Notes: generated by a model not told the origin, from the sequence alone. A stretch of DNA of 59,240 nucleotides, filler included, from Fonticula-like sp. SCN 57-25 (GCA_001724245.1; 8 parts of 8 records of this genome joined end to end with filler, not necessarily neighbours in it), one strand, 5' to 3'; counted from the first letter of the whole stretch, positions 1-59,240 are shown. Translations and numbers: made by a program.

Positions 1-419
1 GCGTGTCAGTAAAACACAAAAAACAAACGATATTACGCCGATTTGCATCAAATCGTACCTGCTTGGTAGGTGACGAGAGAAATAATAAAGTCCATTGGCG
101 TCATCGCCTTCTCGCCGTGCTTGTCCGTGGCGCTGGAAAAGTACTGAAACACCTTGAGCGGGTGGCTGAACGCACGGATGCGGTTCTCATAGTTGCCGAC
201 CCACTTTGCCTTGAGCGACTGCCATTCCCACCGCCCCTGCTCCGCGGCTCCTTCCGCATGCGCGACCGATGTTTGACCGGCAATCGTCGCCGCGGCGATC
301 GCCGCCGACGCCGCTAAAAGTGCGCCAGTTCGCTTACCAGAGTGCTCGCGAGGTGCCGCACGCACGACGGCACGCGCAGCGCCCGACGACGCGAGAACGG
401 ACGCGCCCAGTCGCCACAT
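1..419 (-). CDS. MICU1: Mitochondrial calcium uptake protein 1-like; first exon 419-59, 3' end runs off the window
   Basis: Presequence-like N-terminus, then YENRIRAFSHPLKVFQYFSS...MTPMDFI typical of MICU1; intron donor GTACGA at 58. Confidence 0.8.
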
Positions 420-716
420 CGTCCCTGCAGGAGACGGGGGACAAGCTGATGGAAACGTTCCGCAAAGCGCCGGCCAATCAGCAGCGCCCCCAGGGCAAGA
501 CTCTGCCCTTGATTATTTGTTTTGTGCAAACTGGACCGCAAACTGAAGCGAGCGGGGTGGGCCCCCCCGAGGGGCCTGATTTTTTCCCTTTTTCGCACCG
601 TTCATAAACCAGGTTCTCGCAGCGTCCGGTGTTGTTTGGCGCCGGATCCACACGAGGCAGGGACGCACGAGCCGCTTTTCCACGAGTAAAGGGCTTGCTA
701 CGCGTTCTTGGTCAAC

Positions 717-3603
717 ATGACTGACGCCAAGTTTTTTACAAACCAAAAGCGCGGTACGCAATGCTCGGCTGATTCGCTTCTGCAGGACAGGGCACTGACT
801 TCTGTCCGATGCAGGCGAGCTGGTGGAGCTCCGCGCAGACCTGAACGACACAGACAGGAACAAGAAGAAGGATGCCGTCAAGAAGATTATTGCGTACATG
901 ACGGTCGGTAAGGACGTGAGCGGCGTCTTTGCGGACGTGCTCAAGAACATGCAGACGGACGACATTGAGCTGAAGAAGCTCACCTACCTCTACCTCATGA
1001 ACTACGCCAAATCCGAGCCGGAGCTCGCCATTCTCGCGGTGAACACTTTTGTCAAGGACTCGGAGGACACGAACCCGCTCATCCGCGCGCTCTCGATCCG
1101 CACGATGGGCTGCATTCGCGTGGACAAGATCGTCGACTACCTGTCGATCCCGCTCAACAAGACGCTCCGTGATCCCGAGCCGTACGTGCGCAAGACGGCC
1201 GCCCTTACGGTCGCCAAGCTCTTTGACCTTAACCCCACGCTCTGCGACTCGAACGGCTTCCTTGACGCCCTTCGCGACATGGTCTCTGACCCGAACGCGA
1301 TGGTGGTCGCCAACGCCATGGCGGCCCTGAACGAGATCAACGAGGCCACGAACGGCACCGCCTTTACGCTCAACGCCGTCTCGCTCAACAAGCTCCTCAC
1401 GGCGCTCAACGAGGCCAACGAGTGGGGTCAGACGTTTATGCTCGAGGCGCTCGCCCAGCACCACGCGTCGAACGCGCGCGAGGCCGAGAGCATCTGCGAG
1501 CGCGTTTCGCCCCGCCTGACGCACGCGAACGGCGCCGTGGCGCTCACCGCCATCCGCGTCATCCTCCGCTTTGCCCCGCAGATCGAGTCGCCCGACGTTG
1601 CGCGCGCCTTCCACCAGAAGCTCGGCCCGCCGCTCATCTCGATGCTGTCGAGCGAGCCGGAGGTGCAGTACATTGCCCTGCGCAACATCAACCTTATCCT
1701 CCGCCGCTTCCCGACGCTGCTGCAGCAGGACATTCGCGTCTTCTTTTGCAAGTACAATGACCTGCCGTACATCAAGCTCGAGAAGCTCGAGATTATCGTG
1801 CGCCTCGTGCAGGAGCGCAACGTTGAGCAGGTGCTTGCCGAGCTCAAGGAGTACGCCAGCGAGGTCGACGTGGCCTTTGTTCGCCGCGCGATTGGCGCGA
1901 TTGGCGGCTGCGCGCTCAAGCTTGAGCGCTCCGCCGAGCGCTGCATCACGACGCTGCTCGACCTGATCAAGACGCGCGTCACGTACGTTGTGCAGGAGGC
2001 CATCGTGATCATCAAGGACATCTTCCGCAAGTACCCGAACCAGTACGAGTCGGTGATCCCCGCGCTCTGCGAGAACCTCGAGGTGCTCGACGAGCCGACC
2101 GCGCGCGGCGCCCTCATCTGGATCATTGGCGAGTACGGCGAGCGCATCCAGAACGCCGGCGAGCTGCTCGCCCAGTTTGTGGACAACTTTAGCGAGGAGA
2201 ACGTGCAGGTGCAGCTCCAGCTGCTCACCGCCACGGTCAAGCTGTTCCTCAAGGCGCCCGCCGTCGCCAAGGACCTCGTCCAGCAGGTCCTCCAGCTCGC
2301 CACGACGCGCAACGACAACCCCGATCTGCGCGACCGCGGCTTCATCTACTGGCGCCTCCTCTCGAGCGACCCGGCCGCCGCGCGCACCGTCGTCCTCGCC
2401 GAGAAGCTGCCCATCGACGCCGACGCTGACGACCACGTGCGCGACTCGCTGCTCGACGACCTCGTCGCGCACGTCGGCACGCTCGCGTCCGTCTACTTTA
2501 AGCCGTCGACCGCGTTCGCCGACACGACGCGCTCGACGTTTATCCCGGAGGAGGCCGAGGCGTACGAGACGGGCGCCGACGAGATGGGCGCCACGGGCGG
2601 CATCGCGTCGCCACCGCCGATGGACATGTACCACCAGCAGCAGCCCGTGCAGCAGCAGCAGCAGGCCACGCCTTCGTCTGGCGGTGCCTTTGATAATTTG
2701 CTCGACCTCGACGACGGCCTCCCAAAGATGTCGTACACGTCGTCGGCGACCGCTGCTTCGGCGTCGTCGTCGGGCATGGTCGACATTATGGACCTTTTGG
2801 GCGACATTGGCGGCTCGTCGGCCCCCGCCCCCGCCACGTCAGGCGTCGTCGGCGGCAATGCCGGTCTCTTTGGTCTGTCGGCGTCGGCGCCTTCGTCGTC
2901 GTCGTCGGCGGCCGCCGGCAAGCAGGTGATGCTGACCGCTGCGCAGGGCCGCGGCCTTGAGGTGTCGTACTCGCTGGCTCGCCGCCAGGGCACTCTTTTT
3001 ATGGACCTGCGGTTGCACAACGCGACGCAGACGCAGATGAGCGACTTTGCGATCAGCTTTAACAAGAACAGCTTTGCGCTGACGCCCGCCTCGGCGCTGT
3101 CGGTAAGCCCTGTTGCGCCCGGCCAGTCGGCGGAGACGTCGCTGCCGCTCGCCTTTACCGGCGCGCGCAACAAGACGGACCCGCTGAACCAGCTCCAGAT
3201 TGCCATCAAGAATAATGTCCAGACGCACTACTGCCAGATCGCCGTCCCGCTCGAGACGCTCTTTGGCGACGACGGCGCCATCGCGCAGGCGCAGTTTTCG
3301 CAGCTGTGGTCGCAGGTGTCGACCGACGAGAGCCGCACGTACCAAAACATTACGGTCGGGTCGCCACAAGCGCTCTCGGAGAAGCTCCAGCGCCACAATG
3401 TGTTTGTGTCGGGGACGCGCAAGGTGGGCAACTTTGACGTCATTTACGCGTCCGTCAAGGTCGCGGGTGTCGTTGTGATCCTCGCAGAGGTCGCCATCCA
3501 CCCGTCGCTCACGTCTGTAAAGGTAACAGCGAGGACGCCCACCACCGAGATCGTCCCGCTCTTCCTCGACAGCCTCGACGCCGTCTTCCGCGCGCCCTTC
3601 TAG
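717..3603 (+). CDS. AP-1/AP-2 adaptor complex beta subunit (exons 717-753, 815-3603)
   Basis: MTDAKFFTNQKRGE start after splicing a 61-nt intron; KKIIAYMTVGKDVS, NPDLRDRGFIYWRLL; hinge with clathrin-box-like LLDLD; appendage domain. Confidence 0.95.
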
Positions 3604-4058
3604 ACAACTCTTTCCTCGCTTTTTTTTCTCTTTCACGTTTGTCTTTCTTCCTTTTTGTGCGTGCCTTTGGGCTTTGCCGCTTTCCCGCTCCTTGTATTGG
3701 GAAATAAAATTACTATAGTCTGCATCGTTGCGCACATGATCTGCCCATGAGAGCGGTAAAAGTGAGATGATTTACCAATTGGGAAACCACCCCACGACCC
3801 CCGAGTCTGCCCCGAACTGAAGAGAAATGGACCAATCAGGAGCAAGCGCGTTTTGTGATTGCGCGTCACGGGAGCAACTGTCCTGCTGACCTGACCGGCC
3901 CCCTTTTGACTAGTGCTCCACTTGCACGGCATCGCGTGGCCTCTGAAGCGTGCGGGTGCTGCTGTTTCGCTTGCAAGGGCCCCTGTTAGTGTTTTGGTGG
4001 TGCAATTATCAGTTTTGTGAGTGGTAGTGGAGCGATGCGCCGGTAGCATTGCAACCTA

Positions 4059-7000
4059 ATGAGTGATCTCTTTTCGTCGTTTCTGCGGTGGACAGGCAGT
4101 GGGCAGACCGTCGCGCCAGCGCCGGCTGCTGCCGCTGCCGACTCGCGCCACCTGCAGGACGCGTTTTCGTGCGTATAATATTCTTTATATACGTTTCACT
4201 GACATTCTTTACAGGTGGGATCCCCCTCCGTTTGAAGTCGGTCAAGTCCGCGTCGTCGTGCTGCAGGACAGCTCGCGCAAAGGCAAGACCCCCATGTTTG
4301 ACACGCACATGCGCAGCCAGCCCGTGTCGCGCTCCCCCGCGTACGTTATTGTATTGTTGATTTAAATTGCGCTAATATCCTCTTAGCAAGCCGGATCATC
4401 CCGGCGCATCGCCTTCCTCGCCATCGCGCTCCAACCCCCGCCCGACAATCGCCGGCGATCTTGATCTGATTGGCGAGATGATGTTTGGCGCCGTCCCCCT
4501 GAGCATGAACCGCGACACCACAAAGGTCCATTTCATCCGCTCCCCCCAGCAGATCCTCTTCACCAAGCTCTTTTCCGTCACGCCATCCACCATCTACCCC
4601 TACACCTCGGACAACACGCCCGCGCACTCCAACCCCGGCAGCTTCCACGCGACCACCCCCCTTGGCCCGCTCAACGCGTCCCCCGACATGACGCCGCCCG
4701 GCTCCTTCCGCACGTCGCGCACCTTCACCGGCGCGACCGACGCCGAGGCGCCGCCGGACGACTCGCGGCGCCCCAGCCTCGCCGGCAGCTCGCCGCCGAC
4801 GGGCCTCGAGGACGCTTTCCGCTCGCCGTCGTCGTCCTTTTCGAGCAATTACAGCGCGCGGCGGTACAACCGACACCGCTCGACGTCCATTGACTATGTG
4901 CCGCGCGACGTGTTCGAGGGCGGCGCGGGCATGGGCGGCGTCGGCGGCGGTCCGCAGCGGCGCAGAAGGATGCTGTACACGGTCGGGTGCATCGTGCGAC
5001 TCGAGGACAACTTGAAGCTGCACGACCTTTTGTTTTCGCATTTTGGGCTCGTCGAGCACAGGCTGAGCCTTTTAAAGGAGGTTGTCGCGCGCGAATTGGC
5101 CGCGGCCGTCAGCGCGTCGACTTTTCTTATTGGAATTGAGCAGGCGGCGAGCGACGCAGCAGAGTCGCCAAACTTGCTCAGTACGTATTTTGATATGATT
5201 TTGATATGATTTTGATAAGAAAATGTGTTACTTACTTTGCTGTTAGTGCCGTATGCGCTGCAAATGAATGAGGTTGTGTTGAGGGCGGTGTACTCGTTCA
5301 GGATGGCGCTTATTACGCTGTATAGCACGCCGAGGATTCAGGAGCCGATATGGCTCAGTGCGGCGACATTTCCAAAGAGGAGACAAACACTGCTCATTCG
5401 ACTGTGCGTATAAATTGGGTATTTTGGTGCATTTTTAGGTGAAAATTGGTGCATTTTGATGCATTTTAGATGGTTTTTGGTACATTTTGGTGCATTTTAG
5501 GTGTTTTCGTCCATGTCTCTCCTATTGTAACTTTGCACTTTCCCATTGAATTGTCTCCTTTTCATGCCACATTTCTTCCTAACTTTCCTCTTCTTCAGCA
5601 TGCGCGACCTTTCCTTCCTCATTGACAATTTCGACACCAAACGCACCAATCATTTCATCAGCTCCACCATCTCCGCCGTCCTCATGCAGCACCTCGCCTG
5701 GGTCCCCACCGTCGCGCGCCTCACCCCCCCCACCGGCGAGCCCTCTCTCCGGCAACAAGGCGAAGCCTTCCCCTACAACCCCCTCTGGGCGCAGCTCGGC
5801 GACCTCTACGGCACCATTGGCACGCCGCCCGTCCTCGCGCGCACAGTCGTTGTCGGCGCGCAGCACGAAGTAGTCAAGCGACTTTTGCTTGTTTTGAGCT
5901 ACTTTATACGATGCTGTGAAGTGTTTGAGACGGTTGAGCACTTGAGTCATCCTGGGCTTGCGCGCCTTTCGAGCGCGAATGGCGGCAGATCGACGTCGTC
6001 CATCAGTGCGGACAGCGGGCATTACTCGACGGGCAGTGATGTGTCGCCGGTGCCGCCGGCCGCGCCGGATTTGCTGTCATTGATGGATAGCTTTCAGAGT
6101 GGGGCGAGGCAGGCGGCGAGGCCGCAAGCAGTGCAGCAGCAGCAGCAGGTGCCGGCGGATAATGATGATTACTTGTCGGATTGGTTGGCGGATGCGAGGT
6201 TTCATGATGGCGAGACGCCCGTTTTGCCAAATTACGCCGTCATTGACGAGCAGTTGATGACAAGTAATCAGGCAAATCAGGTCAATAATCAGGCAAATCA
6301 GGTGAATAATCAAGTAAGTCAGGCAAGTGCACCACATATTCAGGCGAGTGTTCAAGGGAATGTTCATAATCAAGAGAATCAGCAGCAGGCTTCAAATCAG
6401 CCTTCAAATCAGTCTGCGAATCAGACAAATCAGGCAAATCAGCTGCCAGCTGGCCTTGTTGCCGTCAAGATGCCAGTGTCGCAGCGCGTGCGTGTCGTCC
6501 CCGACACCAATGCTGCCCCCCTGGCACCTCCCCCGCCACCGCCGCCACCGCCGCCGCCGCCTTCATTGCGCCTATCCACCGCGACGATCGTCCCGCTTTC
6601 GCATCAGCCGACGCCCGCCTCGACCAATGGCGGCGCGCCGTACCGCGGCGAGGACCTCTTTGGCAAGTCGTATGGCCGCTCGCTCTACGGCGGCTACACC
6701 GCGCGCTACGCCGGCGACTTTGTGCTTCACGGCGTGCCGCGCGCCGACTTTATGGAAGAAGTCGTTCGCGACATCCGCGACACGGTGACGCTCGACGTGC
6801 TGGACGAGCCGGTCGACCGCGCCGTGTGCGTCGTGGCGGACATGAACACGTGGCGGTGCGAGCTCGTCGTCGGCACGCGCAACAACAACCACTCGATTGA
6901 CCTGAAGACGCTGTCGCCGAGAAAAGTTGACGAGCCGGAAAGGGACGACGGGCGGGTAAGGTTCAGTCAGCGTCAGCCGCCGGCGTCAGACTATGTCGTG

Positions 7001-7346: not shown

Positions 7347-7446
7347 NNNNNNNNNNNNNNNNNNNNNNNNNNNNNNNNNNNNNNNNNNNNTTAATTAATT
7401 AANNNNNNNNNNNNNNNNNNNNNNNNNNNNNNNNNNNNNNNNNNNN
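7347..7446. other. Artificial contig spacer N44-TTAATTAATTAA-N44 (also 14767-14866, 22489-22588, 29863-29962, 37221-37320, 44568-44667, 51905-52004)
   Basis: Seven identical 100-nt spacers with stops in all six frames; genes are truncated at their edges. Confidence 0.98.
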
Positions 7447-10400
7447 CACGCACAATGGAAAACTTTGCAAAGTTGATGCTATCATAGCGTAGGAAATATG
7501 CGCTCCACAACTGCAACACCTTTGTCGAGCACGTCGGAATGAGCACATTGTGCGCATCAGGCGCATATGAAGCATTCTGAAGCTGCGGGCGGAGACGGTC
7601 AAGGTGCGCAAACAGAGAGTACGTTGTCGCGCCAACCGACTGCGATATCCGCTCAATCTATAAATAGACATTAGACATGCTTCACCACGTGGTCATTTAT
7701 GTACCTCGCTGTTGTATGAAAATGTGCCGAAAAAGCGCGAGTCGATTGCGTCCATGAGGGCGAGCAAGTACCGCTCGTTGAATTCAAAGGCGGAAGGGAA
7801 TTGGCGCACGAGCTGCCAAACACAGTCGACGAATTGGAGGAAAATGGGCGAGCGCTGGTCGGGGCGGCGAGTGTCGCCTTGGCGGTCGGAGAACTTGTGG
7901 CCAAACGCAAGCCATTCCTTGGGAGAAGGTGAGAAAAAAGGGGAAAAGCATGGATAAATGGGTCAAAAGGGGTCAAAATGAGAATAAAAAGGATTCCAAA
8001 ATGACAACAAAAGTACCCAAAAAGTGCCTCAAAAGACTCAATTTACCCAAATTGTACCGAAAATGACCATTATTATCCCATAAAAATAACCATATCATAC
8101 CTTTTGGATGAGAACACAAAAACCGTCGATTGTCCTAAAATAAGGGTCGAGCAGCAGCTGAGCAAGTGCCGCGAGCTGTGCCGTTCTATCCCACCCGTCC
8201 GAGCAGTGAATCAGAACATTCAGGCCAAGTTCCTCAACATGAAAGGCAATTGTAAGGGCAGACTTTAATAAAAGACTGATGTGCGCAAGCCAACGAGTGT
8301 CACCAAGCAGTGTCAGCCAATTGTACTCGCGAACAGTCGACGACTCAATAAGCTGTTCAAGTAGATATGAATAAGAAAATGTCATAAATAGAAGAGAAAA
8401 CACACTAAAAAGATATGATACAGCTTCACAGGAGACATATTAAAAGAAACATCAAAATAAACAAGTGACAAAAAGTCACTTAAAGATGTAAAAAGGCACA
8501 AAAAAGGCACCAAATCCACAACAAAATCACTAAAATTCTCATTTTTACCCCCAATTTCCCCAAAAAACCACCATCAAAACCGTACGTCTCTGAGCTTGTC
8601 CACCGACGACCTCATTGCATGAATATTCTCAATCCCCAAAAACGTCAGCCTACAATCCGTATACCCATAAATCGGGTCCTCTGTGCCATGCCCCCTCACG
8701 CGGTTCCCCTCAGCAGCCAATCGCGACCGCGCGTCAAAGATGAGCAGCTCGGACGCGTTCGGCGCCGACGCGCGGACGGCGCTCAGCATGTCCTGGTCGA
8801 GCTTGCTGACGTTGCCGGCGATGCCGACGTTGGGCTGGGAAGAGCGGCAGATGGCGTTGCCTTTGCGCTTGTTGTACCAGGTGAGGACGGGGAGGCGGCC
8901 TTGGCTGCGGAAGCGCGAGACTTCAAGTACATCGGCGTCGGTCATCTGAAGGAAAGATTGGTAAGGAAAGGGTAAATATGGTCGTTATGAGTAGAGAAAC
9001 AAAAGAAATGGCATAGAAAATATCATGTTTGTACATATAAATGACAGAGCTTCCATAGAAAATGACAGTTTTGTGCATGTAAATGAAGTAAATTCGACCC
9101 AAAATACGTCACATTCAAAGAATATCCTCATAGCATTTTTTCAATAGTCGCACCTTTGATGGCACCGCGAGCAATGCCGGGTAGTTTGCACACACCTGAT
9201 AATGCTTATTCACCAACGTCACCCTCCACCTCTTGAGGGGCAGCTTCTGCCTCTGCAGCTCCCTCACCATATCAAACGCCCCCGGCATCACCAGCTCCGC
9301 CACCTTCTCTGCATCCGCCCACGTGGTCAGCGACGGCAGCTCGACCGCCGCCGCATTAATAATGGACGACAATGACGACTCGCCCGCGCCAATCAGACTG
9401 CCGCTCGGCACGCCCGCCTTTGCGCCGCCGCCGAGGCCCCACGCGCTCAGCGAAAACATGCTGCTGCTGACGGCGTCCTGCTGCGGCTTGAACGACGGGT
9501 CTTCCGCGACGGCCAATGGGAAGCGCAGCGGCTCGGCGGCGCTGCCCTGCTCGTTCAGGCGGTACAGGTTCCACGCCGAGCGCAGCCGAGTCGCGTTGGC
9601 GGCGGCGAACAAAAGGCGCGATTCGATGGCGGCGACGGCGTTGTCGGGCACGGAAGACTCGAAAACAAAGCGCCACGTGGCGAAATCGACGCAGCGGACG
9701 GTCAGGTTGCACAGGCGGCCGTGCGCGACGGCGCGCTCGGAGGAGCGCTCGGCGTCAATGACCTTGTCGAGAGGGGCAAAGACGGAGAGGTCGAGGCCGC
9801 GCGTTACTTTGGCGAACGCGCTCTGATTGGGTGAAGGAAGGGCGCCGTCCAATGAGGAGGCTTCTTGAGCCAGCGCGTCGGCGGCGTCGGGGCGAACAAG
9901 GCTGCCGTCAGAGGACGCGGTGGCGGGCGACGGCGGCGCGAGCGGGTCGGCGCCGTACACGCTCGAGTCAAGGAAGACGAGGCGGTGGCTCGTGATGAAC
10001 AGCGTCCCATTGGTCAGTTGGTCACCAAGGAAGATTGCCACGCGCGGAATGCGCACTTCTACCACCTCTGCAGTGCCTAATTTTTAGGAAAACAACCCAA
10101 ATTTAGATACGAAAATCATACTTTTAGGCCCAATTTCGTACCAGGCAGCTCGATGAGCGGCTTGCTTTCGTCGTTTGTTGCACATGTGAGCCCCTTTGAC
10201 TTTACCGCGCGCCTGAACGCCTCGAGGTCGCTCTGCCAGTCTGGCGGGTCGATCGTGCACCGCACCTCAATAAGGATCTGGCCGAGGTCGTCCGCGACGC
10301 CGCCGCCCTTATTTGCGCCGAGCGGGAACCAGCCGAGGAACGGCTTGCTCGAGATGCACGACAGCGGCAGCATGGCGACGCCGACAAAGTCGTTGGCGGT

Positions 10401-12590: not shown

Positions 12591-14388
12591 ATGCTTGCAT
12601 CGGCCGTGCTCCGCACTCGCTTTGTCGCCCCGCCGCTTTCCCTCCTGCGCCCCACTCTCTCTTCTTTCACCCCGTCTATAGTCTCCACCCGCCGTCGCTA
12701 TACAATGGTCCGATCGCCCGCCAACGCCGACGATCAGCTGCAGTCCGCGGCAGTCGCCGGTGATGCCGCAGCCGTGCAGGCTGCGATCATCGCGGGTGCC
12801 AAGCTCGACAAGGCCAACGACCGCGGCTTTACGCCTCTTCACTTTGCTGCCCGCTACGGCCACGCCGCTGTTGCGCGCATCCTGGCGGAGCGATCGGGCA
12901 ATCTGCTCGCGCGCACGGCCGACGGCAAAACCGCTCTCGATCTCGTACGCCATGTCGATCGCGATCCGCTTGTGCTGACCTCGCTAGGCCGAGTTCTGGG
13001 GTCACGAAGAGACGGCCTCGTTCCTGAAGCAGCTTGTCGCCGCGCGCGCGCCCAAGGAGACGTCATCGGCACCGGCGATTGAGTCGTCGATCCGCTTCGC
13101 CGACGGCCCGCAGCATCACTTTACATCGGCGCCCGCCCTCAACAGGCGCGCCTCCTTTTTTTTGGATCGACAATACTGACCTGTAGTACTAGGCTGGGCA
13201 ATGTGCGCAAGGACAGCGGCTGGTTCGCGCGCGCACTGACCGAGATGCCGTCGCATTGGCTTCTCCTGACATCACGCAGCATCCTTCTCGACAAGAAGGG
13301 CGCCGTCGCGTTCCTCTCGCTCGAGCAGGCCAGCAAGTACCGCGAGGCCGGCGCTCTTTCCATCGTCCTCGTGCGTGGAAATATAATGTGCTTTACTTTG
13401 TGCTGACGACGCACAGGGGTCGTATGACACGCAGCCTGGCGAGCTGTACTGCGCGATGGATGCGACCGACATTGAACTCGATGGCAACTCGCATCACGAA
13501 GGTACGGTATAGTAACGACCGCTTTTTATACTCAATGAGAGTCCGTAGCGGTCATGGGGGCGCTGGAAGCGTCGATGGAGCCGCTTATTCCGACCACATT
13601 CAGGATGCAGAACAAGGCGCACAGCGCTCTCTTTGCGCAGGCGAGGTACGATATTTGATATCAAAGGCGGTGTTTCCTTACAATATTATAGGTCTATTCT
13701 TGACTGGAACCGCCGCCACGTCTTTTGCTCCATGTGCGGCGGCCGCACAAGTACGTTATTAACATCTTTTTATGACATTTCTTATGTCGTTTGTGATATT
13801 TCTTGTGACTTTTCTTGTGTCTTTTGTATCTCTTCCGACACATTTCTAACCCCTTTCTCAGCGAGTGCCGAGAGCGGATACAAGCGCCAGTGCCACACCC
13901 CCACCTGCAGCGCCTCCTCGCACGTCCAGAGCGTCTCGCACCCCCGCACCGACGCCGTCGTCATCGCGCTCGTCCTCAACCGCGACCGCTCCGCCTGCCT
14001 CCTCGGCCGCGGCCCGCGCCACCCGCCCGGCTTTTACTCGGCGCTCGCTGGCTTCATGGAGCCCGGCGAGTCCATCGAGGACGCTGTGAGGCGCGAAATC
14101 GCTGAAGAAACGGGTGTCCACGTGGGCCGCGTGGCGTACCATTCGTCGCAGCCGTGCCCGTTTCCCGCGCAAATTATGATTGGGTGCATTGCAGAGGCGC
14201 TGACGGAGGAGCTGACATTGGATAAGGAGGAGATTGAGGACGCGCGGTGGTTTACAAAGGAGGAGATTAGGGGGATTAGGGAGGGGAAGGTGGACAGGGA
14301 GGGGAAGAGGGTGACGCTGCCAATGGGGTTTGCGATCGCGTCAAGTTTGCTAAAGACATGGTTGGAGGATCCGGCGGCGCGTCTATAA
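12591..14388 (+). CDS. NUDT12: Ankyrin plus NudC-type NAD(H) pyrophosphatase / deNADding enzyme, 6 introns
   Basis: Ankyrin repeats (GFTPLHFAARYGH, GKTALDLAEFWGH), zinc finger FCSMCG..C....C, Nudix box GFMEPGESIEDAVRREIAEETGV, C-terminal ARL. Confidence 0.88.
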
Positions 14389-14868
14389 AAGGGGTGAGTA
14401 GATAATATTGGTAAATATGTATAATAATAATGGAATACAAGACTGTGTCGATGACTGTGTGACTATGAGTATGGGGTAAACTGAATATGAAAAGTGATTC
14501 ATCCATAGAGAAAGACACTTTCCATGGCACAGACAGCGCATATATATATCTGAACTCTACATGTACAATAACCTGCTGCAGAATACATCTGAGTCTGCCC
14601 TGGATATCTAAACTGTGCTTTACATGCCCATAATATTATGTTACGTATGTGTTTATGTAATAAAATGTACAATACTGATACAAAATTAGTCGTGATTGTC
14701 CTTTTTTGCGAATGGCGCATCGCTTACGAGGCGGTGCGTGCGCGGAGTGAGCGCGCCCTGCGACGCNNNNNNNNNNNNNNNNNNNNNNNNNNNNNNNNNN
14801 NNNNNNNNNNTTAATTAATTAANNNNNNNNNNNNNNNNNNNNNNNNNNNNNNNNNNNNNNNNNNNNAA

Positions 14869-21288: not shown

Positions 21289-22488
<1,200 letters not shown>

Positions 22489-44567: not shown

Positions 44568-44667
44568 NNNNNNNNNNNNNNNNNNNNNNNNNNNNNNNNN
44601 NNNNNNNNNNNTTAATTAATTAANNNNNNNNNNNNNNNNNNNNNNNNNNNNNNNNNNNNNNNNNNNN

Positions 44668-47600: not shown

Positions 47601-50600
47601 GCGGAGAGCGGCGAGCTGGGCGTCGAGCTGCTTGCGGGCATCCTCCTCCTCCTCGAGGCGGTCGCGGAGCTCGTCAAGCTCAGTCTCAATGGTCTTCTTG
47701 GAGCGCTCAAGGGTAGCCTTGGAGCGGTTCGCCTCCTCGTTCTTGGCGCGGGCCTCCTCGAGCTCAGCCTCAAGAGCGCGGCGCTGGGCAGCAAGCTGCT
47801 CGCGAGCGTTGTCGGCCTCGCTGGCGCGGGCAACAGTGGCCTCGAGCTGGGTCTGGAGGGAGCGGCGGAGCTCCTCGGCCTGGCGGCGAGCGAGAGCCTC
47901 GTTCTCAAGCTGGGCAAGAGCCTCCTTGAGGTCGTTGGCGGTCTTCTTGCTGGCACGCTCGGCGGCAAGGCGAGCCTTCTCGGCGGCATCGAGGCCAGCC
48001 GAAGTATCCTCGCTGTTGGCAACAGCAGACTCGGCATCCTTCTTGGCGCGCTGCAGCTGGGCCTGAAGGGCATCGAGCTGCTCCTGGAGGCGGGCAGCCT
48101 CGGCGCGGAGACGCTTCTTCTCAGTCTCGGCAGCGGCTTCGGCGGCCTCGCGGTCACGCTGGGCACGGGAACGGATCTCCTCAATCTCAGAGTCCTTGGC
48201 GCGGCGGGTCTGCTCAATGGCGGCCTGGCGGTCGGCATCATCATCAACGGCCTCCTTGAGGGTCTCAACCTCGCGCTCGAGCTTCTTGCGGGTGGCCTCG
48301 AGCGTAGCAAGGCGCTTGCGCTCGGAAATGAGCTCAGAGTCCTTGCTGTCAGCCTCGTCGCGGGCAGCCTTGAGCTGCTTCTCGATGGCGAGGCGGCGGG
48401 CCTCCTCCTCGGCAAGGAGGGACTGGGCACGGGTGAGCTCGACATCCTTGCGGGTAACAGTCTCGGCAAGGGTGGAGCGCTCGGCCTGCACACCGGTGAG
48501 CTGGTCGCGGGACTTCTTGAGCTCCTCCTCGACCTTGCGGCGGGCCTTGTCGAGATCGCGGCGCGAATCCGCGTCGGTATCCGCGCGTTCGTTAAGCTCC
48601 ACAATCTCGGCCTCGAGCTGGCTCTTGGACTTTTCAAGGGCAGCCTTGGCCTTCTTGGCAGCCTCAATCTCGGTGGAGAGCTCGCTGATGCGGGCGTCGG
48701 CAGCGCGCTTCTGGTTCAGCATCTCGTTGGCGGACGAGCCCTCAGCCTGGAGGGTGCGCTGGAGATCCTCAACGGTGCGCATCTGCTCCTTGATCTTGGC
48801 CTCGTTCTGGGCAATGACTTCCTTGTCATCCTCGACCTGCTCGCGGGCATCCTTGAGCATGGCGTCGAGCTTGCGCTTCTCGTTCTCGAGGCGCTCGCGG
48901 GCGTCAGACTCGTCGGCGAGGCGGTTCTCGAGCTCCTCGCGCTCAGACTCGAGGCGGCTGCGGGTCTCCTCGAGGGCGGTGAGCTTGCCGACAGTGTCGT
49001 CGTACATGAACTTGGCCTGCTCGAGCTCCTTCTGGAGATCCTCGAGGGTGCGCTGAAGGGTGTCCGCGCGCGTCTCGGCGGCGGTGCGGAGCTCAGTCTC
49101 CTCGGCAAGGCGGCGCTCGAGCTCCGAAATGCGGTCGCGCAGGGCGCGCTCCTCCTCCTGCTGACGGTGGACGTCGAGGAGGGGGCGGACCTGGCGGAGA
49201 AGCTTCCACCAGGGCCACTGGTAGAGCTCAATGAAGACGCGAACGTTGCGCTGGATAACGCGGATAGCATCCTCCTGGCCAAACATGCGGCGGTACGACT
49301 TGCGGGCAAGGTAGCCACGGGCCGAGGCCTGGAAGCCAGAGATAACGGCCGAAAGCTTGGCATCGCGGCGGTCCTCAAGCTCGGCAACGACGCCGGCCTT
49401 GAAGAAGACCTTGGTGTGACCAATGCGGTGCGACTCCTTCGGGACGTTGAGGGCGCCGATGAGCGTCTCGGCGGCGACACGGCTGTCCATGAAGCCCTTC
49501 GGGATCGCGTTGGCGGCGAGAATCTCGTAGCGCTGGCGGAACTCGGCAAAGACGAGGCGGTTGGGGAAACCCATGCGCACGATACGGATACCCTCAAGCA
49601 CACCGTTGCAGCGGAGCTGGTCGAGAACGAGGGCAGCATCAATGATGCCGGGGCGCTTGGTCTCGTTGGGAATGATGCAACGCACAAAGTGGGGGTGCGT
49701 GTTGGTGAGCGTAGTCATGAGCGCGTTGAGCGAGACGCGGTGACGCTGCGACACGGACACAAAGGTGCCGGCCTTCTGGCGCTTGCGGATGGTCGACGGG
49801 GCATCGCCGCTGCTGGGCGCCGAGCCGCTGCTGCCGGTGGGGCCCATGAGGCCGTCCTCCTCAGCCTGGGCGGCCGAATCGGCAAAGAGCTCGGCAAGGA
49901 GCGGAACCTGGGAGCGACCAAAGAGCGCGGCAACGTTCTCGTTGATCGGGTCCTTGTTCTTGTCGATCCAGTTGCCAGTGTCGTAGCCGACCTCGCCGGC
50001 ATAGTGGCGGAGCACAAACATCTCGGGGCGGAGCTTGATGCGGTCGTACTTGTCGTTCTTGCCGGCGTGCTGGGCGTGCAGCTTCTCGATGAACGACTTG
50101 TCAGTGGCCTTGGGGAAGAGGCACTCCTCGTCGAGGATGGAGAGGATACCCATCGGCTTCTCGATGAGGTCAATGGTGCCCTGGAGATCGAGACCAAAGT
50201 CGACAAAGTTCCACTCGATGCCTTCGCGGATGTACTCCTCCTGCTCGAGCACGAACATGTGGTGGTTGAAGAACTGCTGGAGCTTCTCGTTGGTCAAGTT
50301 GATGCAGAGCTGCTCAAAGCTGTTGAGCTCGAAAATTTCGAAACCAGCGATATCGAGGGTGCCGATGAAGGTGCTGGCGCGACCGTGGGTCTCGAGGGTG
50401 CGGTTGATGCGCTGGACGATCCAGCGGAAGAGGCGCTCGTAGACGGCCTTGGAGAGAGCCTCAACCGAGTACTCGGCCTTCTGCGCGTTGACCTGAGCAA
50501 CGACGACCTCGCGGCCGGCCTTGACGCGCGGCTTGGTGAGGCAGCGAACAAAGTCGGTGGCCTTGAGGCCGAGGACGTGCGAGACCTTGTCCGACACAAC

Positions 50601-51689
50601 AGAGTCGGAAATCTGGGCGGCCTCCTCGCGCTTGGACTCGGTGAAGGCAAGGTTACCCATGTGGAGGATACCCGAAATAATGCGCCAGGTGCTGTCGATC
50701 TCAGACTCGGTGAAGCCGATCGTCGCCATGGCGTCCTGGGTGTCCTTGAACTCGCGCGCATCATCGACCTGGTCGATGGTGTGCGTGCCCTCGAGGTACT
50801 TGTAGTTGCGAATGTTCTCAAGGAGGTACTTTTCGCGGTTGCTGTCGTCGCTGGTGGCGAGGAGCTGGTAGAAAATGTGGAAGCTGCGCTCGTTGGCGGC
50901 ATGGCGAACCACACGGTTCTTCTCCAAGAGGTAGTTGTCAATGTTGCAACCAACAATCTTGGCATCCGAGCCAAACTCGATGCGGATGAACTTGCCGAAA
51001 CGCGACGAGTTGTTGTTACGGATGGTCTTGGCGTTACCAAAGGCCTCGAGGAGAGGGTTGGTGAGGATAATCTGCTTCTCGAGCTGGCCGACCGACATGG
51101 ACTTGCCGTCCGAGCCGGAGGAGGTACCAGCGATCGAGGCGAGGTACTGGATCACCTTCTTGGTGTTCTCAGTCTTACCGGCGCCCGACTCACCGGTAAT
51201 AAGGAGCGACTGGTTCTCGCGCTCCTGGAGCATGTTGCGGTACGCCTCGTCGCACACGGCAAAGATGTGCGGCGGCAGCTCCTTTCTCTTCTTGCCCTTG
51301 TACATCTGGACGATCTCGTCGGTGTACAGGGGAATGCGGCGCCAGGGGTTGATCACAACCAAGAAAAGACCCGAGTAAGTGTAAATCAGGTTCGACTGGT
51401 AGCGGTCGCGCAGGTTGTGCAGAACGCTCGACTCGTTCAGGTGAATGAGCTCGGCCATGTCCTCGCACTTTTCATACTTGGGCGGGTTCATGGGCTCCAG
51501 CTCGTCCTGGTTGACGGTGCGCTCCTGGCCGTCGCCGGCCTTGACGGTCACCTTGCCGCCATCCTCCTTGGTGACGTAGACGGCAATGCAGCCCTCCTTC
51601 GGGTCAATGAGCCAGGTCCACTTCTTCTGAGCCCACGCGGCCTGCTTGAGCTCGAGTTGCTCCTGGGTCTTGGAACGCAAGACGTCCAT
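44668..51689 (-). CDS. Myosin II heavy chain, long-rod paralog; intronless, stop codon beyond the contig end
   Basis: N-terminal SH3-like domain, GESGAGKT, NNNSSRFG, DIAGFE, 2 IQ motifs, WPWWKL, coiled-coil rod of at least 1505 aa. Confidence 0.96.
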
Positions 51690-52014
51690 CTTTACTCAGG
51701 CCTCCTTCCTTCTTGTGCGAAAAGAATAGGCGACTTGAGAAAAAGTGGAGTTCCTCTTGCTGAACAAAGAGAAATAACAAACCAAGAAGTTGTCAAGAAG
51801 GATGCGGGTCGTCGTTCGCCCCGGCAGGTCCTCTTTTCCTCTTCTTTCCTTGTTCCCCAACAACAGTAAAAGGAAAAAGAGGAATTTTTTCTCCTTTTTG
51901 GTGCNNNNNNNNNNNNNNNNNNNNNNNNNNNNNNNNNNNNNNNNNNNNTTAATTAATTAANNNNNNNNNNNNNNNNNNNNNNNNNNNNNNNNNNNNNNNN
52001 NNNNTGCTTTTCAG

Positions 52015-55000
52015 ACAAGGAGAACCAGTCGCTCCTCATCACTGGCGAGTCCGGTGCCGGTAAGACTGAGAACACCAAGAAGGTGATCCAGTACCTCGCC
52101 GTCGTTGCCGGTACCTCGGGCACCACCCAGGGCCAGCTCGAGAAGCAGATTCTGCTCACCAACCCTCTCCTTGAGGCTTTCGGTAACGCCAAGACGATCC
52201 GTAACAACAACTCGTCGCGTTTCGGCAAGTTCATCCGCATCGAGTTCGCCTCGGACGGCAAGATTGTCGGTTGCCACATTGAGAACTACCTCCTCGAAAA
52301 GTCGCGCGTCATTCGCCGCGCCGACAACGAGCGCTCGTTCCACATCTTTTACCAGCTCCTCGACGGCGCCACTGCCCAGCAGAAGACCGACTTCCTCCTC
52401 GAGACCCCGCGCCAGTACCGCTACCTCAAGGGCGAGGCCAACATTGACGGCGTCGACAACAAGAAGGAGTTTGAGGAGACCCTCTCGGCCATGCAGGTCA
52501 TCGGCTTCACCGACGCCGAGCGCGACCAGCTCTGGTCGATCCTTTCGGGTATCCTGCACTTTGGCAACATGGAGTTTGTTGGCTCCAAGCGCGAGGACAG
52601 CGCCCAGATCAAGAATGTCGAGACCGCGGACAAGGTCTCGCACCTGTTTGGCATCAAGAGCGCCGACCTCCAGCGCTGCCTGCTCAAGCCGCGCGTCAAG
52701 GCCGGTCGCGAGTGGGTGACTGCCATGGTCACCGCCGACAAGGCCGAGTACAGCGTCGAGGCTCTCTGCAAGAGCATGTACGAGCGCATGTTCAAGTGGA
52801 TCGTTTCGCGCATCAACTCGACCCTCGAGACCCACGGCCGCGTGTCCACCTTCATTGGCTGCCTCGATATCGCAGGTTTTGAGATCTTTGATCACAACAG
52901 CTTTGAGCAGCTGTGCATCAACTTGACCAACGAGAAGCTCCAGCAGTTCTTCAACCACCACATGTTCGTGCTCGAGCAGGAGGAGTACATCCGCGAGGGC
53001 ATCGAGTGGAAGTTTGTCGACTTTGGCCTCGATCTCCAGCCCACGATCGACCTCATTGAGAAGCCCCTCGGTATTCTTTCCATCCTCGACGAGGAGTGCC
53101 TCTTCCCCAAGGCCTCGGACAAGTCCTTCATTGAGAAGCTCCACGCCCAGCAGGACGGCAAGCACGAGAAGTACCACAAGATCCGCCTGAACCCGGACAT
53201 GTTCCTTCTCGACCACTATGCCGGCTCTGTCCCGTACGAGACCGCCAACTGGCTCGACAAGAACAAGGACCCGATCAACGACAACGTTGCCTCGCTCCTC
53301 AGCAAGTCGACCAACCCGCTCATCGCCAACCTCTTTGAGGATGCCGTGTCCGAGGAGGACGGCTCCGTCAAGGCGCGCGCCGGCAAGGCCTCGACCTTCA
53401 TCACGGTCGCCCAGCGCCACCGCCAGCAGCTCAACGCGCTCATGACCACCCTTCGCGCCACCGTGCCGCACTTTGTGCGCTGCATCATCCCCAACGAGCA
53501 GAAGAAGGCCGGTATCATCGACGCCCCGCTCGTCCTCGACCAGCTCCGCTGCAACGGTGTGCTCGAAGGTATCCGTATCGTGCGCATGGGTTTCCCGAGC
53601 CGCCTTCCGTTCGCCGAGTTCAAGCAGCGCTACGAGATCCTCGCCGTCGGCGTCATCCCCAAGGGCTTCATGGACGGCAAGGTCGCCGCCGTCAAGCTGC
53701 TCGAGTCGCTCGCCATCGCCAAGGACAACTTCCGCATCGGTAACAGCAAGGTGTTCTTCAAGGCCGGCGCCATCGCCGAGCTCGAGGAGCGCCGTGACGA
53801 GCGCCTGAGCCAGCTCATCTCTGGCTTCCAGGCCGCCTCGCGCGGCTACCTCGCGCGCCGCCGCTTCCGCCGCCAGCACGGCAAGGAGGAGGCGATCAAC
53901 GTCATCCAGAAGAACGCGCGCGTCTTTATCGAGCTGTACCAGTGGAGCTGGTGGAAGCTGTACCGCCAGGTCAAGCCTCTGCTCGGCGTCCACCGCACCG
54001 AGCAGGAGCAGAAGAAGCTCACGGACCGCATCAAGGAGCTCGAGGCCGCCCTCAAGAGCGAGGAGGCTCTCCGCGCCGAGCTCGAGGCCAAGGTTGCCAC
54101 CCTTGCCAAGGAGCACGAGACGTCGCTGACCGACCTTGCCACGGAGCGCGAGGCGCTTGAGGAGACTGTGCAGTCGCTCAAGAACCTCGAGGAGAAGCGC
54201 GCCAAGCTGCAGGCGATGCTCAAGGACAATGAGAAGCTGCTCGAGGAGGCTGACGAGGAGAACGCCCGCATCGACTCGACCAACAAGCGCCTCCAGGAGG
54301 AGATCAAGGGCCTCAACGCCAAGCTCGCCGACGACACTGAGAAGCGCGCCGCCATGGAGGAGGTGCGCAAGCAGAACCAGGTCGAGCTCGAGCAGGCCCG
54401 CAACATGTTCAACGCCGAGAAGGAGAAGCTCTCTGGCGACCTCGAGAACGAGCGCCGCAAGCGCGAGCAGGCCGTCGCCGAGCTGCGCGGCCAGCTTGAG
54501 GCTGCGCAGAGCTCGCTCGAGCGCGCCCGCAAGGAGGCCAAGAACGCGTCGGCCAACAATGACGAGATGAGCGCCTCGCTCGCCGCCGCCGAGCAGGGCA
54601 AGCAGTCGGCCGAGACGGCCCGCCGCAACCTCGAGCGCGACCTGCAGGACGCCCAGAACGAGCTGCGCGTCGCCAACGCCAAGCGCCAGCTGCTTGAGGA
54701 CAGCAAGAAGGAGCTTGACGACAAGATTGCCGCCATGAACCAGCGCCTCGACGAGGCCGAGGCCAGCAAGGCCGCCGTCGGCCAGGCCAAGGCGAGCCTC
54801 GAGGAGGAGCTTGAGGAGATGCAGAAGCAGGTGTCGGACGCCAACAAGGCGCGCGCCGCCGCTGACCAGCAGCGCAAGTCCGTCGAGACGCAGCTCGGCG
54901 ATGCCGACACGCGCCTGCGCGCCGAGGAGGCGCGCCGCAAGGAGGCCGAGATCAAGGTGTCGACCCTCGAGGCTCAGCTCGAGGACGCCACCGACAAGCT

Positions 55001-55203
55001 CAACCGCGCCGTCGCCGCGTCGGACAACTCGCTGCTCGAGGCGCTCCGCGCCGAGCGCGCCAAGAACGCCGCCCTCGAGGAGAAGATCCGCTCCGAGACG
55101 GCCCGCCGCCTCGCTGCCGAGGAGCGCTACGCCCAGGAGCAGGCCCGCAACCAGGACGTTGACGAGCGCGTTCGCCAGATCCGCGAGATCCTCCTCCGCT
55201 AAG
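52015..55203 (+). CDS. Myosin II heavy chain, short-rod paralog; 5' partial
   Basis: Begins after acceptor ttttcag; same motor and IQ motifs, WSWWKL; 408-aa rod, then TAA and an AT-rich 3' region. Confidence 0.95.
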
Positions 55204-55458: not shown

Positions 55459-57015
55459 ATGGAGACATTTCCGACGTTGCTGGGGATATTCTTTGCTGAA
55501 TTCCACCCTGTTCAGGGGCCCAAAGTGACATTCCAGGCACCCGAAGGGCTCTTGAAGAACGACACATTTGAGAGCATCTCGGATTATGTCATTCCGAAGC
55601 CTCAACTGTGCGGCCGGTTGGTGACCCTGTACGCGCCATCCCACCGCCCACCGCCCTTCTAACCGCGCCTTGCTTTCCCCACAGGCACGTAGACGACCTC
55701 AAGGTCATTGGGTACCCTGTCATAATTGAGAACCAGCGGTACCCCCGCAATGCCATGATCTTTAATCTCGGCATGATCTTTGAGGCGAATGCCGATTCAC
55801 GGTGCTTTGAGCCTGTCGTTCGCAAGCTTGCCAAGACGCTGCGCACAGTCGAGGTGCGCTTTCGTTGTCGCACTCTTCTTTTTGTGTACTCATTTGGCTC
55901 TCTTTGCAGCTTGAGTCTGACTTTTTGTGGAATGTGACGACCAAGGCCCAGCTTGAAGGCGTTCTTGAGCAGCTCCTGTCGGATCTGAACGCCTTTCGCG
56001 AGTGCCAGATCCCCTTCAGTGCGCCCTTTTCCTCCGCCTTTGACCGCCTTTCTCACGCTGACGCGCCGCAGCCCGCGAGAACGCCGTCAATGTAAAGCTG
56101 TTTCCGATCTTTGAGGAGCCGCCGACCGTGTACGACGAGTCGGTGCCCGTGCCGCTGATCGACCTGCAGCAGTTTCTCTGCCGCGACTGGGACATGACCA
56201 TGGGCCGCGTGCGCCTCTTTTCCTCCTTTTCTTTTGCCATGTGCTTACAAAGCGGCTTTTGCAGGTGATCCCGCTGATCGACGGGTCCAACTACACCAAG
56301 CGGATCGCCGATCAGGCCGATGTCGATCTTGAGCTCGCCCGCAAGGCCATCCAGCATCTCGTGTGCGTCGCTTCTCATTTTCATCAACCGCACTCTAACC
56401 TTGTTATATTCACCAGTTATTATGGCTGTGTGCGGCTTGTGGACGTGTTCCAGTACACAAACACGTACGCATGCACATCGCGGATCAGCAAGCTCGCCAA
56501 TGATGCGCACCTTCAGGAGCAGTGCTACAAGTTTGTCGTCAACCGAGGTGCGCTTTTTCGCCTTTTTTGCTGCTGCTGAGCGTCGCTGCAGACGCGGTTG
56601 ACGTCCAGTTCACGTCCATCTTTACGCTGTACTGCGCACTGCGGCACGGCCGGACGGTCACCGAGGTGCTCGCGACACGAAAGGCGCTCGCCGCTCAGAT
56701 CGACGTGAGGTGCGCCGCCGACACTTTTCTTGTAAAGATTGCTCACTTTTTTGTGTTCCGACGGCACTTTTTGTGTATTTTAGAAAGTTTATTCTGTTTG
56801 GCGTCTTTCACGACTTTCTGCGCATCGTCAACCGGCATCTCGTCAAGGCGCCCGGATCGCCCGAGGTCGAGGCGATCGCGGCGCCGCTGCGGCGGTTCCT
56901 TGCGGGCGGCGCGGCGAGGACGATGAACCAGGTGTGCACGGCGCTCTCGTACGCGGCGTCCGAGATCGAGGACGTCATCGAGGCCGACCCAAACATCCGC
57001 GTCCTCTACAAGTAG
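55459..57015 (+). CDS. NPRL2: GATOR1 subunit NPRL2, 7 introns
   Basis: IFFAEFHPVQGPKV, YVIPKPQLC, YPRNAMIFN, WDMTM, FQYTNTY. Confidence 0.95.
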
Positions 57016-57760: not shown

Positions 57761-57874
57761 TAAAGTCGGGGGTGAGTCGCATGCGACAAATCAATCCCGA
57801 AGTTGGATCGCGATCGAGCACGAAGGTTCGCCACGTTTTCCTCCACCTCGGCAGCAAGCAGTGACATTGAAAAA

Positions 57875-58408
57875 ATGGCCGCCGCGCTCAAGAAGTCCTT
57901 TGGTACGCGATCCGCACGAGGCCCGCGCGCGTAATGCGCGCTTTCAGCCATGTAGCATGCATTTTTCTTTGCGTTTTCCTTCTTTTCTTTTCTCTTTGCT
58001 TTGTTTTCCTTCATCTTCACTCGCTTGATGCTAACGAGGGAACACTTTTGCGCAGCGCCCATTATCAACGCGGCGCAGCTCGCCTTCCACCTCGGCAAGG
58101 AGGTCGCCGTCCGCGAAAAGTTCGCCCCGAACGTCGGCGCCTTTGGCCCCGCCGTCGGCGAGTTCGTCAAGGCCTCCAAGAACGCCATCAATGTCAAGCA
58201 TGTGCGTTCTTTCCTCGCTGGCTCTCTTTTAATGTGTTGCTCACATGGCCGCCTTGTGCTCTACTCTGTGCAGGTTTCCAACTTGACCATGCGCGACCTT
58301 GCCGTCCGCGCCGTTGTGTTCGCTGAGGTTCTCGGTTTCTTCACCCTCGGCGAGATCATTGGCCGCCGCAGCCTCGTCGGCTACAAGGTCGGCTCTGTGT
58401 CGCACTAA
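57875..58408 (+). CDS. ATP5MG: Mitochondrial ATP synthase subunit g, 2 introns
   Basis: C-terminal [21 protein letters not shown] signature. Confidence 0.9.
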
Positions 58409-58528
58409 GCCGTCGTGCGGTAGATGTTGCTGTTCCTCGCCTCTTTTTTTTCTTGTCTATTATATCAATGTTTCTAATATAAAACCTCGGCTGTACGCCC
58501 CGCTGCTCTATGCGTGCTCTGACGCGTG

Positions 58529-59240
58529 CTACGCCTGCTTGCGCCTCGGGGCGCCATCGTCGACGTCGCGCTGCAGCGCCTTTGCGACGAGCTCGCTCGC
58601 CGTTCTCCTCGTCGCGTTCCAGCGGCGCTCGTCGAGCGGCCCGCCGCTTCGCGCGAGCGTCGGCGAGTCGCCCTGCTGGTTGCCCTCAAACATGGCGATC
58701 TTTGCCTCGTACTCGTACTTGCGCAGGATCTCGCGCACGTTGAGGGATGCCGGCTCGATCACGCGCATGATGATGAGCATGAACGCCGCAAAGATATGCT
58801 CGGCGGCGATCACGCCGGCCCAGCGCCACGGCACCGACACGCCTGCGCATCACAGTCAGAGACGCACAGCAAACCATGAATAAATGCGCACCCAGGGCGT
58901 CGAGCCGATCTGCGGCCGGTCCAACAAAAAATGCCATTGCGACGTTGAACACGGCGGCGATCATGACGAGAATGCTCAAAAAATCGGTCCACGGGCCGAT
59001 TCCCGACACGCGCCACGGCGTCGCGCGGCGCTGGTTGAACGTCATGCTGGCCGCGTGCGCGCGCAGGTCGACGAGGCTGTTGACCATGGCCACGAGGGCC
59101 GCTAGCGGCCACAGCCCGCCAAAGATAATCACAAGGCCAAACTGCATGACGGCCACAGTGTAGATCTCGGTCTGGTCAAATTCGGGCAGGCGCGCCTCGG
59201 GGAGAACGCGCTGCAATAGCCTGAATGCATCGGTGAGCAG
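58529..59240 (-). CDS. Anoctamin/TMEM16 family protein, C-terminal part; 1 intron
   Basis: QFG..F...WPLA, QRR..P.RVSGIGPW, AAEH. Confidence 0.85.

Follow-up and report, generated by a model that had tools for sequence, protein, structure and literature searches.

Introduction

Position +4 of the 5' splice site (donor) faces position 5 of the U1 small nuclear RNA (snRNA) at first recognition and then the middle A of the ACAGAGA box of U6. It is the meeting point of U1 and U6 recognition and the most variable donor position between species, and lineages that fixed an unusual base there are natural experiments on the co-evolution of snRNAs with thousands of targets. Here we describe the donors in a stretch of eukaryotic nuclear DNA of 59,240 nucleotides (nt), in the following called the window, which is gene-dense, has about 59% G+C and carries about one intron per kb. 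Its donors follow the consensus G|GTRCGY, with C as the dominant base at +4.

Donors of a very similar kind have been described for the amoebozoan Mastigamoeba balamuthi. They read GUGCGC, and a candidate U1 with the 5' arm ACGUAC was presented, whose new G pairs with +4C (Roy & Bowser 2022, bioRxiv 10.1101/2022.06.08.495308). According to the same study, the +4 pyrimidine donors of the green alga Micromonas pusilla and of the apusomonad Thecamonas trahens are accompanied by a canonical U1, which is also found in S. cerevisiae and Giardia. Outside chromosome 2, Ostreococcus lucimarinus uses GTGCGTG donors together with the branch sequence GACTGACG (Irimia & Roy 2008, PMC2483917). In Saccharomycotina, loss of METTL16 or SNRNP27K is linked to a switch from +4A to +4U, and U1 ACUUACC and U6 ACAGA are invariant in about 240 species across such switches (Parker et al. 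2023, PMC10581693).

The window shares with M. balamuthi the commonest donor hexamer (GTGCGC), a purine at +3, C at +4, G at +5, mostly C at +6 and an intron-rich genome. M. balamuthi, however, is an anaerobic amoebozoan, whereas the window encodes subunit g of the mitochondrial ATP synthase and a myosin II that is nearest to early-diverging fungi among its best 120 matches. Common to the window and to Ostreococcus and Micromonas are +4C donors and a strong CTGAC-type branch point near the acceptor, but in these intron-poor green algae the signal is tied to intron-poor genomes. T. trahens resembles the window in its +4 pyrimidine preference (compared at this level and not by exact consensus) and as a free-living relative of opisthokonts; the cited part of the study reports no U1 compensation for it. 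The switch in Saccharomycotina is likewise centred on +4 and involves the loss of +4A. These yeasts prefer +4U with invariant U1 and U6, however, whereas the window prefers +4C.

The dialect of the window thus belongs to the known +4-pyrimidine lineages and +4C donors are not new. A previous inspection of the window by eye (hereafter the original prediction) had also stated that they occur in other eukaryotes, and Mastigamoeba, Ostreococcus and Micromonas bear this out in print. Literature searches, judged by their results, turned up no description of a GTRCG or GTGCGC donor dialect in holomycotans. With the window, the few known +4C users gain a lineage that is fungus-related, free-living and rich in introns. 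This is relevant to the view that massive intron loss has to precede homogenised signals of this sort. New in the present work are the confirmation of the dialect by blind and homology-anchored methods, the point that loss of METTL16 predicts U and not C, and the presence of a U1 with G at position 5 (G5 U1) beside GTRCG introns in metagenomes.

Donors in gene models blind to position +4

The original prediction was based on genes assembled by hand. This procedure carries a risk of circularity, since GTRCG may be picked by its appearance. Therefore, tests ignorant of the donor were used. A Viterbi gene finder was run with codon usage only, i.e. any GT...AG of 38–200 nt was allowed at a flat penalty and there was no donor model. 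It returned 28 introns with C at +4 in 17, G in 4, A in 4 and T in 3. For a second model the signal was learned from the predicted introns with +4 omitted, so that GTRAG and GTRCG score equally. This model yielded 40 introns (+4 = C 35, T 3, A 1, G 1) and, with laxer penalties, 53 introns (C 45, T 5, A 2, G 1). The codon tables were kept fixed; a self-trained table had drifted to the 7-kb myosin gene and lost genes.

The null expectation for false positives of the model is given by the GTRNG words of the whole window, 375 of 711 of which (52.7%) have C at +4. The 45 of 53 introns with +4C exceed this share with a binomial p of 8.5e-7. Intron interiors consist of 20% A, 22.5% C, 21% G and 36% T. 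Since T is the most abundant base there, an unconstrained +4 would be mostly T. Base composition, which had been named beforehand as a possible refutation, does not explain the +4C bias, because the interiors contain just 22.5% C. Hence, the window-wide GTRCGY consensus with few GTATGN donors stands, and the individual donors cited in its support were all recovered (754 GTACGC, 4169 GTGCGT, 4341 GTACGT and 5404 GTGCGT). The original total of about 84 donors, however, was not reproduced. Beyond the 53 rebuilt introns we have only a few more: three introns of a hydrolase gene and one of a RhoGEF gene, which come from other finder runs, and two introns read by eye (8353–8585 and 21889–22081). A total near 84 is nevertheless plausible, as short first exons are poorly recognized by the finder.

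Junctions fixed by homology

Ten junctions are anchored by homology and need no signal model. Eight of them have C at +4, two have T and none has A. At all ten, the removal of a GT...AG intron restores the reading frame, as seen from Pfam continuity or conserved motifs. The intron search was confined to GT...AG termini, except for one candidate list that also took GC donors.

Removal of intron 1 of the beta-adaptin (AP-1/2) gene (754–814, plus strand, GTACGC, 61 nt, CTGAC branch), which is also predicted by the finder, gives a protein that aligns from residue 1 with six homologues without a gap at the junction. Two junctions are located in a C2-myotubularin gene on the minus strand. Across 8353–8585 (GTACGG, 233 nt; one of several listed candidates for this junction) the Pfam match to Myotub-related continues from 65–188 to 178–273, and across 7918–8100 (GTATGA with T at +4, 183 nt, AAG acceptor; also in the blind model) from 178–273 to 273–349. 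In a MAP-kinase-like gene the intron at 21889–22081 (minus strand, GTACGA, 193 nt, CTGAC branch) was read by eye. Its removal joins TEYVATR to WYRAPE, which we take to be the activation-loop motif of ERK-type kinases, and the Pfam Pkinase match passes from 117–160 to 160–263. The second junction with T at +4 belongs to the Maf1 gene (23849–23896, minus strand, GTATGC, 48 nt), where the Pfam Maf1 match runs from 1–152 to 156–174. In the gene for a PP-type phosphatase (Metallophos) it runs from 2–64 to 69–190 across the intron at 27957–28006 (plus strand, GTACGG, 50 nt). Both introns are also found by the blind model.

The same holds for an intron in an alpha/beta-hydrolase gene (32756–32802, minus strand, GTACGC, 47 nt, CTAAC branch), the removal of which connects LLGFSM to GGAIATSY. 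The resulting GFSM|GG junction rebuilds a G-x-S-x-G nucleophile elbow. In the gene for an EAP30 protein (Vps22/36 family) the intron at 35843–35889 (minus strand, GTACGC, 47 nt) is the sole GTRCG candidate that bridges both exons, and the Pfam EAP30 match extends from 75–127 to 126–219. A RhoGEF intron obtained from the finder (38306–38356, plus strand, GTGCGT, 51 nt) begins where the Pfam RhoGEF match (3–117) stops at the exon end. Finally, the Pfam NPR2 match in the NPRL2 gene spans the plus-strand intron at 56209–56264 (GTGCGC) from 183–225 to 227–258.

Shape of the signal and intron class

The shape of the signal was counted on the 53 introns of the +4-blind model. The base at −1 is G in 30 introns; +3 is A in 25 and G in 27, +4 is C in 45 and +5 is G in 49. 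At +6 there is C in 27 and T in 13, at +9 T in 29, and at position −3 of the acceptor C in 30 and T in 20. The commonest donor hexamers are GTGCGC (14), GTACGC (8), GTGCGT (6), GTACGT (4) and GTACGA (4). Overall, C occupies +4 in about 85–90% of the introns and U in about 8%, with next to no A. A pyrimidine is thus present at +4 in 50 of 53 donors (45 C and 5 T), and the preference for U that characterizes lineages without METTL16 or SNRNP27K is not seen (T in 5 of 53, C in 45).

The introns are short, with a median length of 53 nt and 38 of 53 at 40–70 nt. Of the 53 introns, 36 have YTRAY and 24 have CTRAC within their final 45 nt, mostly 11–19 nt before the acceptor. This agrees with the original description of mostly short introns whose CTRAC-like branch point is near the acceptor. 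Introns of the U12 type have the donor consensus [AG]TATCCTT; GTATCC does not occur among the 53 donor hexamers. The introns of the window are ordinary U2-type GT-AG introns. One member of the blind set with T at +4 (40623–40697) is doubtful, because it lies inside an in-frame GGTATGCCT coding repeat of the RhoGEF gene (40600–40700) which mimics GTATGC donors.

Motif and distance tests

A motif test that does not depend on coding sequence looked for a GTRNG word followed, 40–80 nt downstream, by YTRAY, a short gap and YAG. In the forward sequence this arrangement was found for 56 of 375 words with C at +4, 5 of 122 with A, 2 of 108 with G and 6 of 106 with T. The null values from the reversed sequence were 17 of 287, 9 of 175, 13 of 209 and 13 of 106, respectively. 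Only +4C exceeds this null, by about 34 sites; GTRAG shows no excess. Seen from CTRAC..AG modules, GTRCG has a sharp peak 40–59 nt upstream, with 27 cases compared to 1–5 per other 10-nt bin out to 200 nt, and GTRAG does not occur at all between 20 and 69 nt. Two tests based on open frames were uninformative, because open frames are too common in GC-rich DNA: genuine GT/AG pairs were bridged by open frames no more often than fake dinucleotide pairs, and the share of candidates with open flanks was the same for every +4 base.

On these grounds the donor consensus is very probably real and selected, and not a by-product of G+C content or hand annotation. As a practical consequence, gene finders trained on GTRAGT will mis-annotate the organism from which the window derives.

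Origin of the window

In its motor domain, the large myosin II is 56–57% identical to sequences from Sorochytrium, Rhizophlyctis, Polychytrium and Mortierellaceae and 53–54% identical to animal non-muscle myosins, and full-length beta-adaptin has, apart from itself, no match above about 52% identity (best 120 matches in each case). Fonticula is absent from both sets of 120 matches. Because of these identities, the source looks like an uncultured organism that stands near the early-diverging fungi and has no close relative among sequenced species.

U1 genes with G at position 5 in metagenomes

Public metagenomes were scanned with a pattern of three exact anchors, namely a U1 arm carrying G at position 5 and, after it, the motifs of loop I and loop II. 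Of the seven stretches that matched, three (L001, L003 and L007) are one locus from three assemblies with 99.3–99.8% identity, referred to here as the L001 locus. Its U1 gene (L001:1638–1803; L003:1960–2125, minus strand; L007:1584–1749) is a full-length match to Rfam RF00003 over model positions 1–166, at 70.0 bits barely above the gathering score of 69.5. The gene starts with AUACGUACCUG and possesses loop I, loop II and an Sm site; the sequences GAUCAGGAAG, AUUGCAC and AAUUUAUG are present.

This U1 gene is flanked by two tRNA genes and by Pfam-supported TatD and AlkD-like genes. The donors of the TatD gene are GTACGC, GTACGT, GTATGT and GTACGC, those of the AlkD-like gene GTACGA, GTGCGC (by eye only) and GTGCGT. 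A blind run of the finder on this locus returned four introns, two with GTACG and two with GTATG. Matches to the AlkD-like exon reach at most 62% identity and are mostly without a name, the named ones being mainly bacterial; the gene nonetheless has spliceosomal introns. Hence, an organism with GTRCG donors and a matching G5 U1 exists in public data. It resembles the window in its GTACGC, GTACGT, GTACGA, GTGCGC and GTGCGT donors, in some GTATGT and in CTRAC-like branch points. In contrast to the window, its introns are longer (59–156 nt), its tetranucleotide and codon usage is different, and its U1 has been seen. G5 U1 genes in public metagenomes are a handle for finding further lineages of this kind.

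Among the remaining stretches, L002, L004 and L006 gave no U1 match at E<=0.01 and were taken as chance matches. On L005, a contig of 1.9 kb with 44.5% G+C, three U1-like genes lie in tandem, accompanied by two U5 genes (82.4 and 73.8 bits) and one tRNA gene (224–1683). The U1-like arms ACGUAC, ACAUAC and ACUUAC score 57.2, 66.3 and 67.6 bits, each just under 69.5. From its sequence, this organism seems to keep side-by-side U1 variants for +4C, +4U and +4A donors. Standard and modified U1 variants are also mentioned for Physarum (Roy & Bowser 2022).

Explanations for the preference for C at +4

In our view, the best overall explanation is a selected G|GTRCGY donor dialect for which a compensating U1 is the preferred cause; we estimate its probability at roughly 0.55. 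The spliceosome would then select the shifted consensus by means of a U1 whose position 5 is G and not U (5' arm ACGUAC), which would pair with GUACG and GUGCG donors unbroken from −1 to +5. We prefer a compensating U1 because G5 U1 is found in Mastigamoeba, in print, and in the L001 locus. By analogy with these two, such a U1 may read the donors of the window, a proposal that we regard as tentative. It is a somewhat doubtful further step that a holomycotan-like lineage independently acquired G at position 5 of its U1 and so adapted it to a GTRCGY donor code used throughout the genome. If it did, the window together with Mastigamoeba and the L001 organism would make co-evolution of snRNAs and splice sites recurrent instead of a one-off, and it would be the first case within the animal-fungus supergroup.

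Several observations speak against this explanation. Rfam gave no match in the window, neither at gathering scores nor at E<=1, and no U1-arm or U6-core motif was found there. The L001 locus stems from an organism other than that of the window, because the tetranucleotide profiles correlate at only 0.53–0.59 (10-kb pieces of the window: 0.80–0.96 with one another), CGA accounts for 0.29 of its Arg codons compared to at most 0.12 in 25 genes of the window, and the codon table of the window misses its Pfam-supported genes. The co-occurrence of U1 and donors at this locus is therefore an analogy only. A second G5 U1 locus with window-like composition was not present in the scan, although this is a weak negative, since the contig may be unassembled or the loops divergent. 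Canonical U1 accompanies the +4 pyrimidine in Micromonas and Thecamonas and is also kept in S. cerevisiae and Giardia; in a tally of lineages with +4C or +4 pyrimidine donors, two have a G5 U1 (Mastigamoeba and the L001 organism) and two do not (Micromonas and Thecamonas). C at +6 (27 of 53) would not pair with an unchanged A3 of U1, and this preference is explained by none of the proposed causes, as is the case in Mastigamoeba. All introns in the window are predictions. The original statement that +4 is never A agrees with the ten homology junctions. The blind set does contain two introns with +4A, 29659–29750 (GTGAGC) and, at a gene end, 20926–21045 (GTGACG), but neither has homology support, and no credible +4A donor is left. 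Homology support is also absent for the single +4G intron (42283–42469, GTGGGC), which is rivalled by a GTACGC donor located 33 nt downstream and chosen in another finder run.

A competing explanation, which may quite possibly be correct, is that a canonical U1 (ACUUAC) and U6 (ACAGAGA) tolerate the mismatch at +4, as they do in budding yeast, Giardia, Micromonas and Thecamonas, and that the preference for C is set elsewhere. Protein factors acting at the U1 or U6/U5 hand-over could set it, or a homogenised signal could have drifted in a genome whose introns are very short. It agrees with the standard U1 kept in most +4-pyrimidine species (Roy & Bowser 2022) and with the invariance of U1 and U6 in about 240 species (Parker et al. 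2023), and also with the outcome of the G5 scan and with a +6C that U1 pairing leaves unexplained anyway. However, pairing of a canonical U1 with GUGCGC would be limited to −1, +1, +2, +3 (as a wobble) and +5, which would be a weak helix for a near-universal signal, and both Mastigamoeba and the L001 organism, with donors of the GTRCG type, carry a G5 U1. As an alternative to variant U1/U6 snRNAs, the original prediction had suggested loss of METTL16, the writer of the N6-methyladenosine mark on U6, or of SNRNP27K. We consider such a loss, or a changed U6 box, unlikely as the cause and the weakest fit of the causes weighed. The absence of these factors is indeed linked to a lost +4A preference (Parker et al. 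2023), and +4A is essentially absent from the window. The published switch, however, leads to +4U, which pairs with unmethylated A, at invariant U1 and U6, whereas C dominates in the window. C does not pair with A, and the loss alone would not create a preference for it. The step from this loss to +4C is consequently not supported by the basis cited for it. Finally, an artefact of GC- and CpG-rich coding sequence combined with annotation biased to the GTGCGC word is very improbable. GTRCG does account for more than half of the GTRNG words, GTGCGC is the fifth commonest GT hexamer in such coding sequence, the gene models are predictions and the open-frame tests did not separate the +4 classes. 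But the +4-blind models give 85% C where 52.7% is expected, intron interiors hold 22.5% C, the excess disappears in the reversed sequence, and the distance peak ahead of the branch point and the ten homology-fixed junctions stand against an artefact as well.

Further genes and introns in the window

Pfam matches to exon-sized open frames identify genes for beta-adaptin, FNIP-like, C2-myotubularin, PH-domain, GNAT, ankyrin, NUDIX and MARVEL-domain proteins, a gamma-tubulin-complex component, a MAP-kinase-like protein, Maf1, adenylate kinase, WD40, a PP-type phosphatase, Nse4, an alpha/beta hydrolase, an EAP30-family protein of ESCRT-II, RhoGEF, an EFL1-like GTPase, two class II myosins, NPRL2, dUTPase, subunit g of the mitochondrial ATP synthase and anoctamin.

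The introns described in this and the next paragraph are predictions of the +4-blind model, apart from the long FNIP-like intron. On the plus strand, the FNIP-like gene has introns at 4169–4214 (GTGCGT, 46 nt, CTGAC branch), 4341–4386 (GTACGT, 46 nt) and 5181–5246 (GTACGT, 66 nt). Its long intron at 5404–5598 with a GTGCGT donor is packed with tandem GGTGCATTTT-like units. The ankyrin-repeat gene is interrupted at 12945–12987 (GTACGC, 43 nt) and the NUDIX gene at 13371–13416 (GTGCGT, 46 nt), both with a CTGAC branch. Four introns were found in the MARVEL-domain gene (17210–17259 GTACGC, 17304–17356 GTGCGG, 17437–17489 GTGCGC and 17570–17621 GTGCGC). The 5' end of the gamma-tubulin-complex gene contains three more (18246–18287 GTGCGG, 18342–18385 GTGCGC and 18443–18484 GTACGT), with Pfam GCP_N and GCP_C on the downstream exons, and a further one is located at 20039–20090 (GTACGC, 52 nt). 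The second intron of the PP-type phosphatase gene spans 28517–28568 (GTGCGT, 52 nt, CTGAC branch). In the EFL1-like GTPase gene, the intron at 41387–41450 (GTATGA with T at +4, 64 nt, CTAAC branch) is followed by an exon that begins with GTP_EFTU position 16, and another intron lies at 44166–44212 (GTGCGC, 47 nt). NPRL2 has six introns (55854–55909, 56019–56071, 56209–56264, 56363–56488, 56548–56591 and 56710–56783), all with GTGCGC or GTGCGT donors. In the gene for ATP synthase subunit g, Pfam ATP-synt_G is found on the exon after the intron at 58202–58273 (GTGCGT, 72 nt).

The minus strand contributes introns with a CTGAC branch in the MAP-kinase-like gene (21448–21494, GTGCGC, 47 nt), the WD40 gene (26726–26771, GTACGA, 46 nt), the Nse4 gene (29296–29340, 45 nt) and the anoctamin gene (58843–58891, GTGCGC, 49 nt; Pfam Anoctamin on the upstream exon). 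The Nse4 donor is GTACAT, i.e. with C at +4 and A at +5, and Pfam Nse4 matches both flanking exons.

The G+C content of third codon positions varies strongly between genes, from 0.58 to 0.92 (7391–8385 compared to 717–3603 and 52491–55202), and the myotubularin gene, which has the longest introns, is at the low end of this range. A tRNA search of the window found none. The two class II myosin heavy-chain genes are arranged head to head (44616–51689 on the minus strand and about 52005–55202 on the plus strand). No intron was found in either of them (2358 and at least 904 codons), despite the density of about one per kb elsewhere in the window.

Runs of 44 N occur in seven pairs, with 12 bases within each pair and a spacing between pairs of about 7.3–7.7 kb (7347–7446, 14767–14866, 22489–22588, 29863–29962, 37221–37320, 44568–44667 and 51905–52004). 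They look like masking or scaffolding and not like biology. One of these pairs covers the start region of the second myosin gene, another the 3' end of the first.

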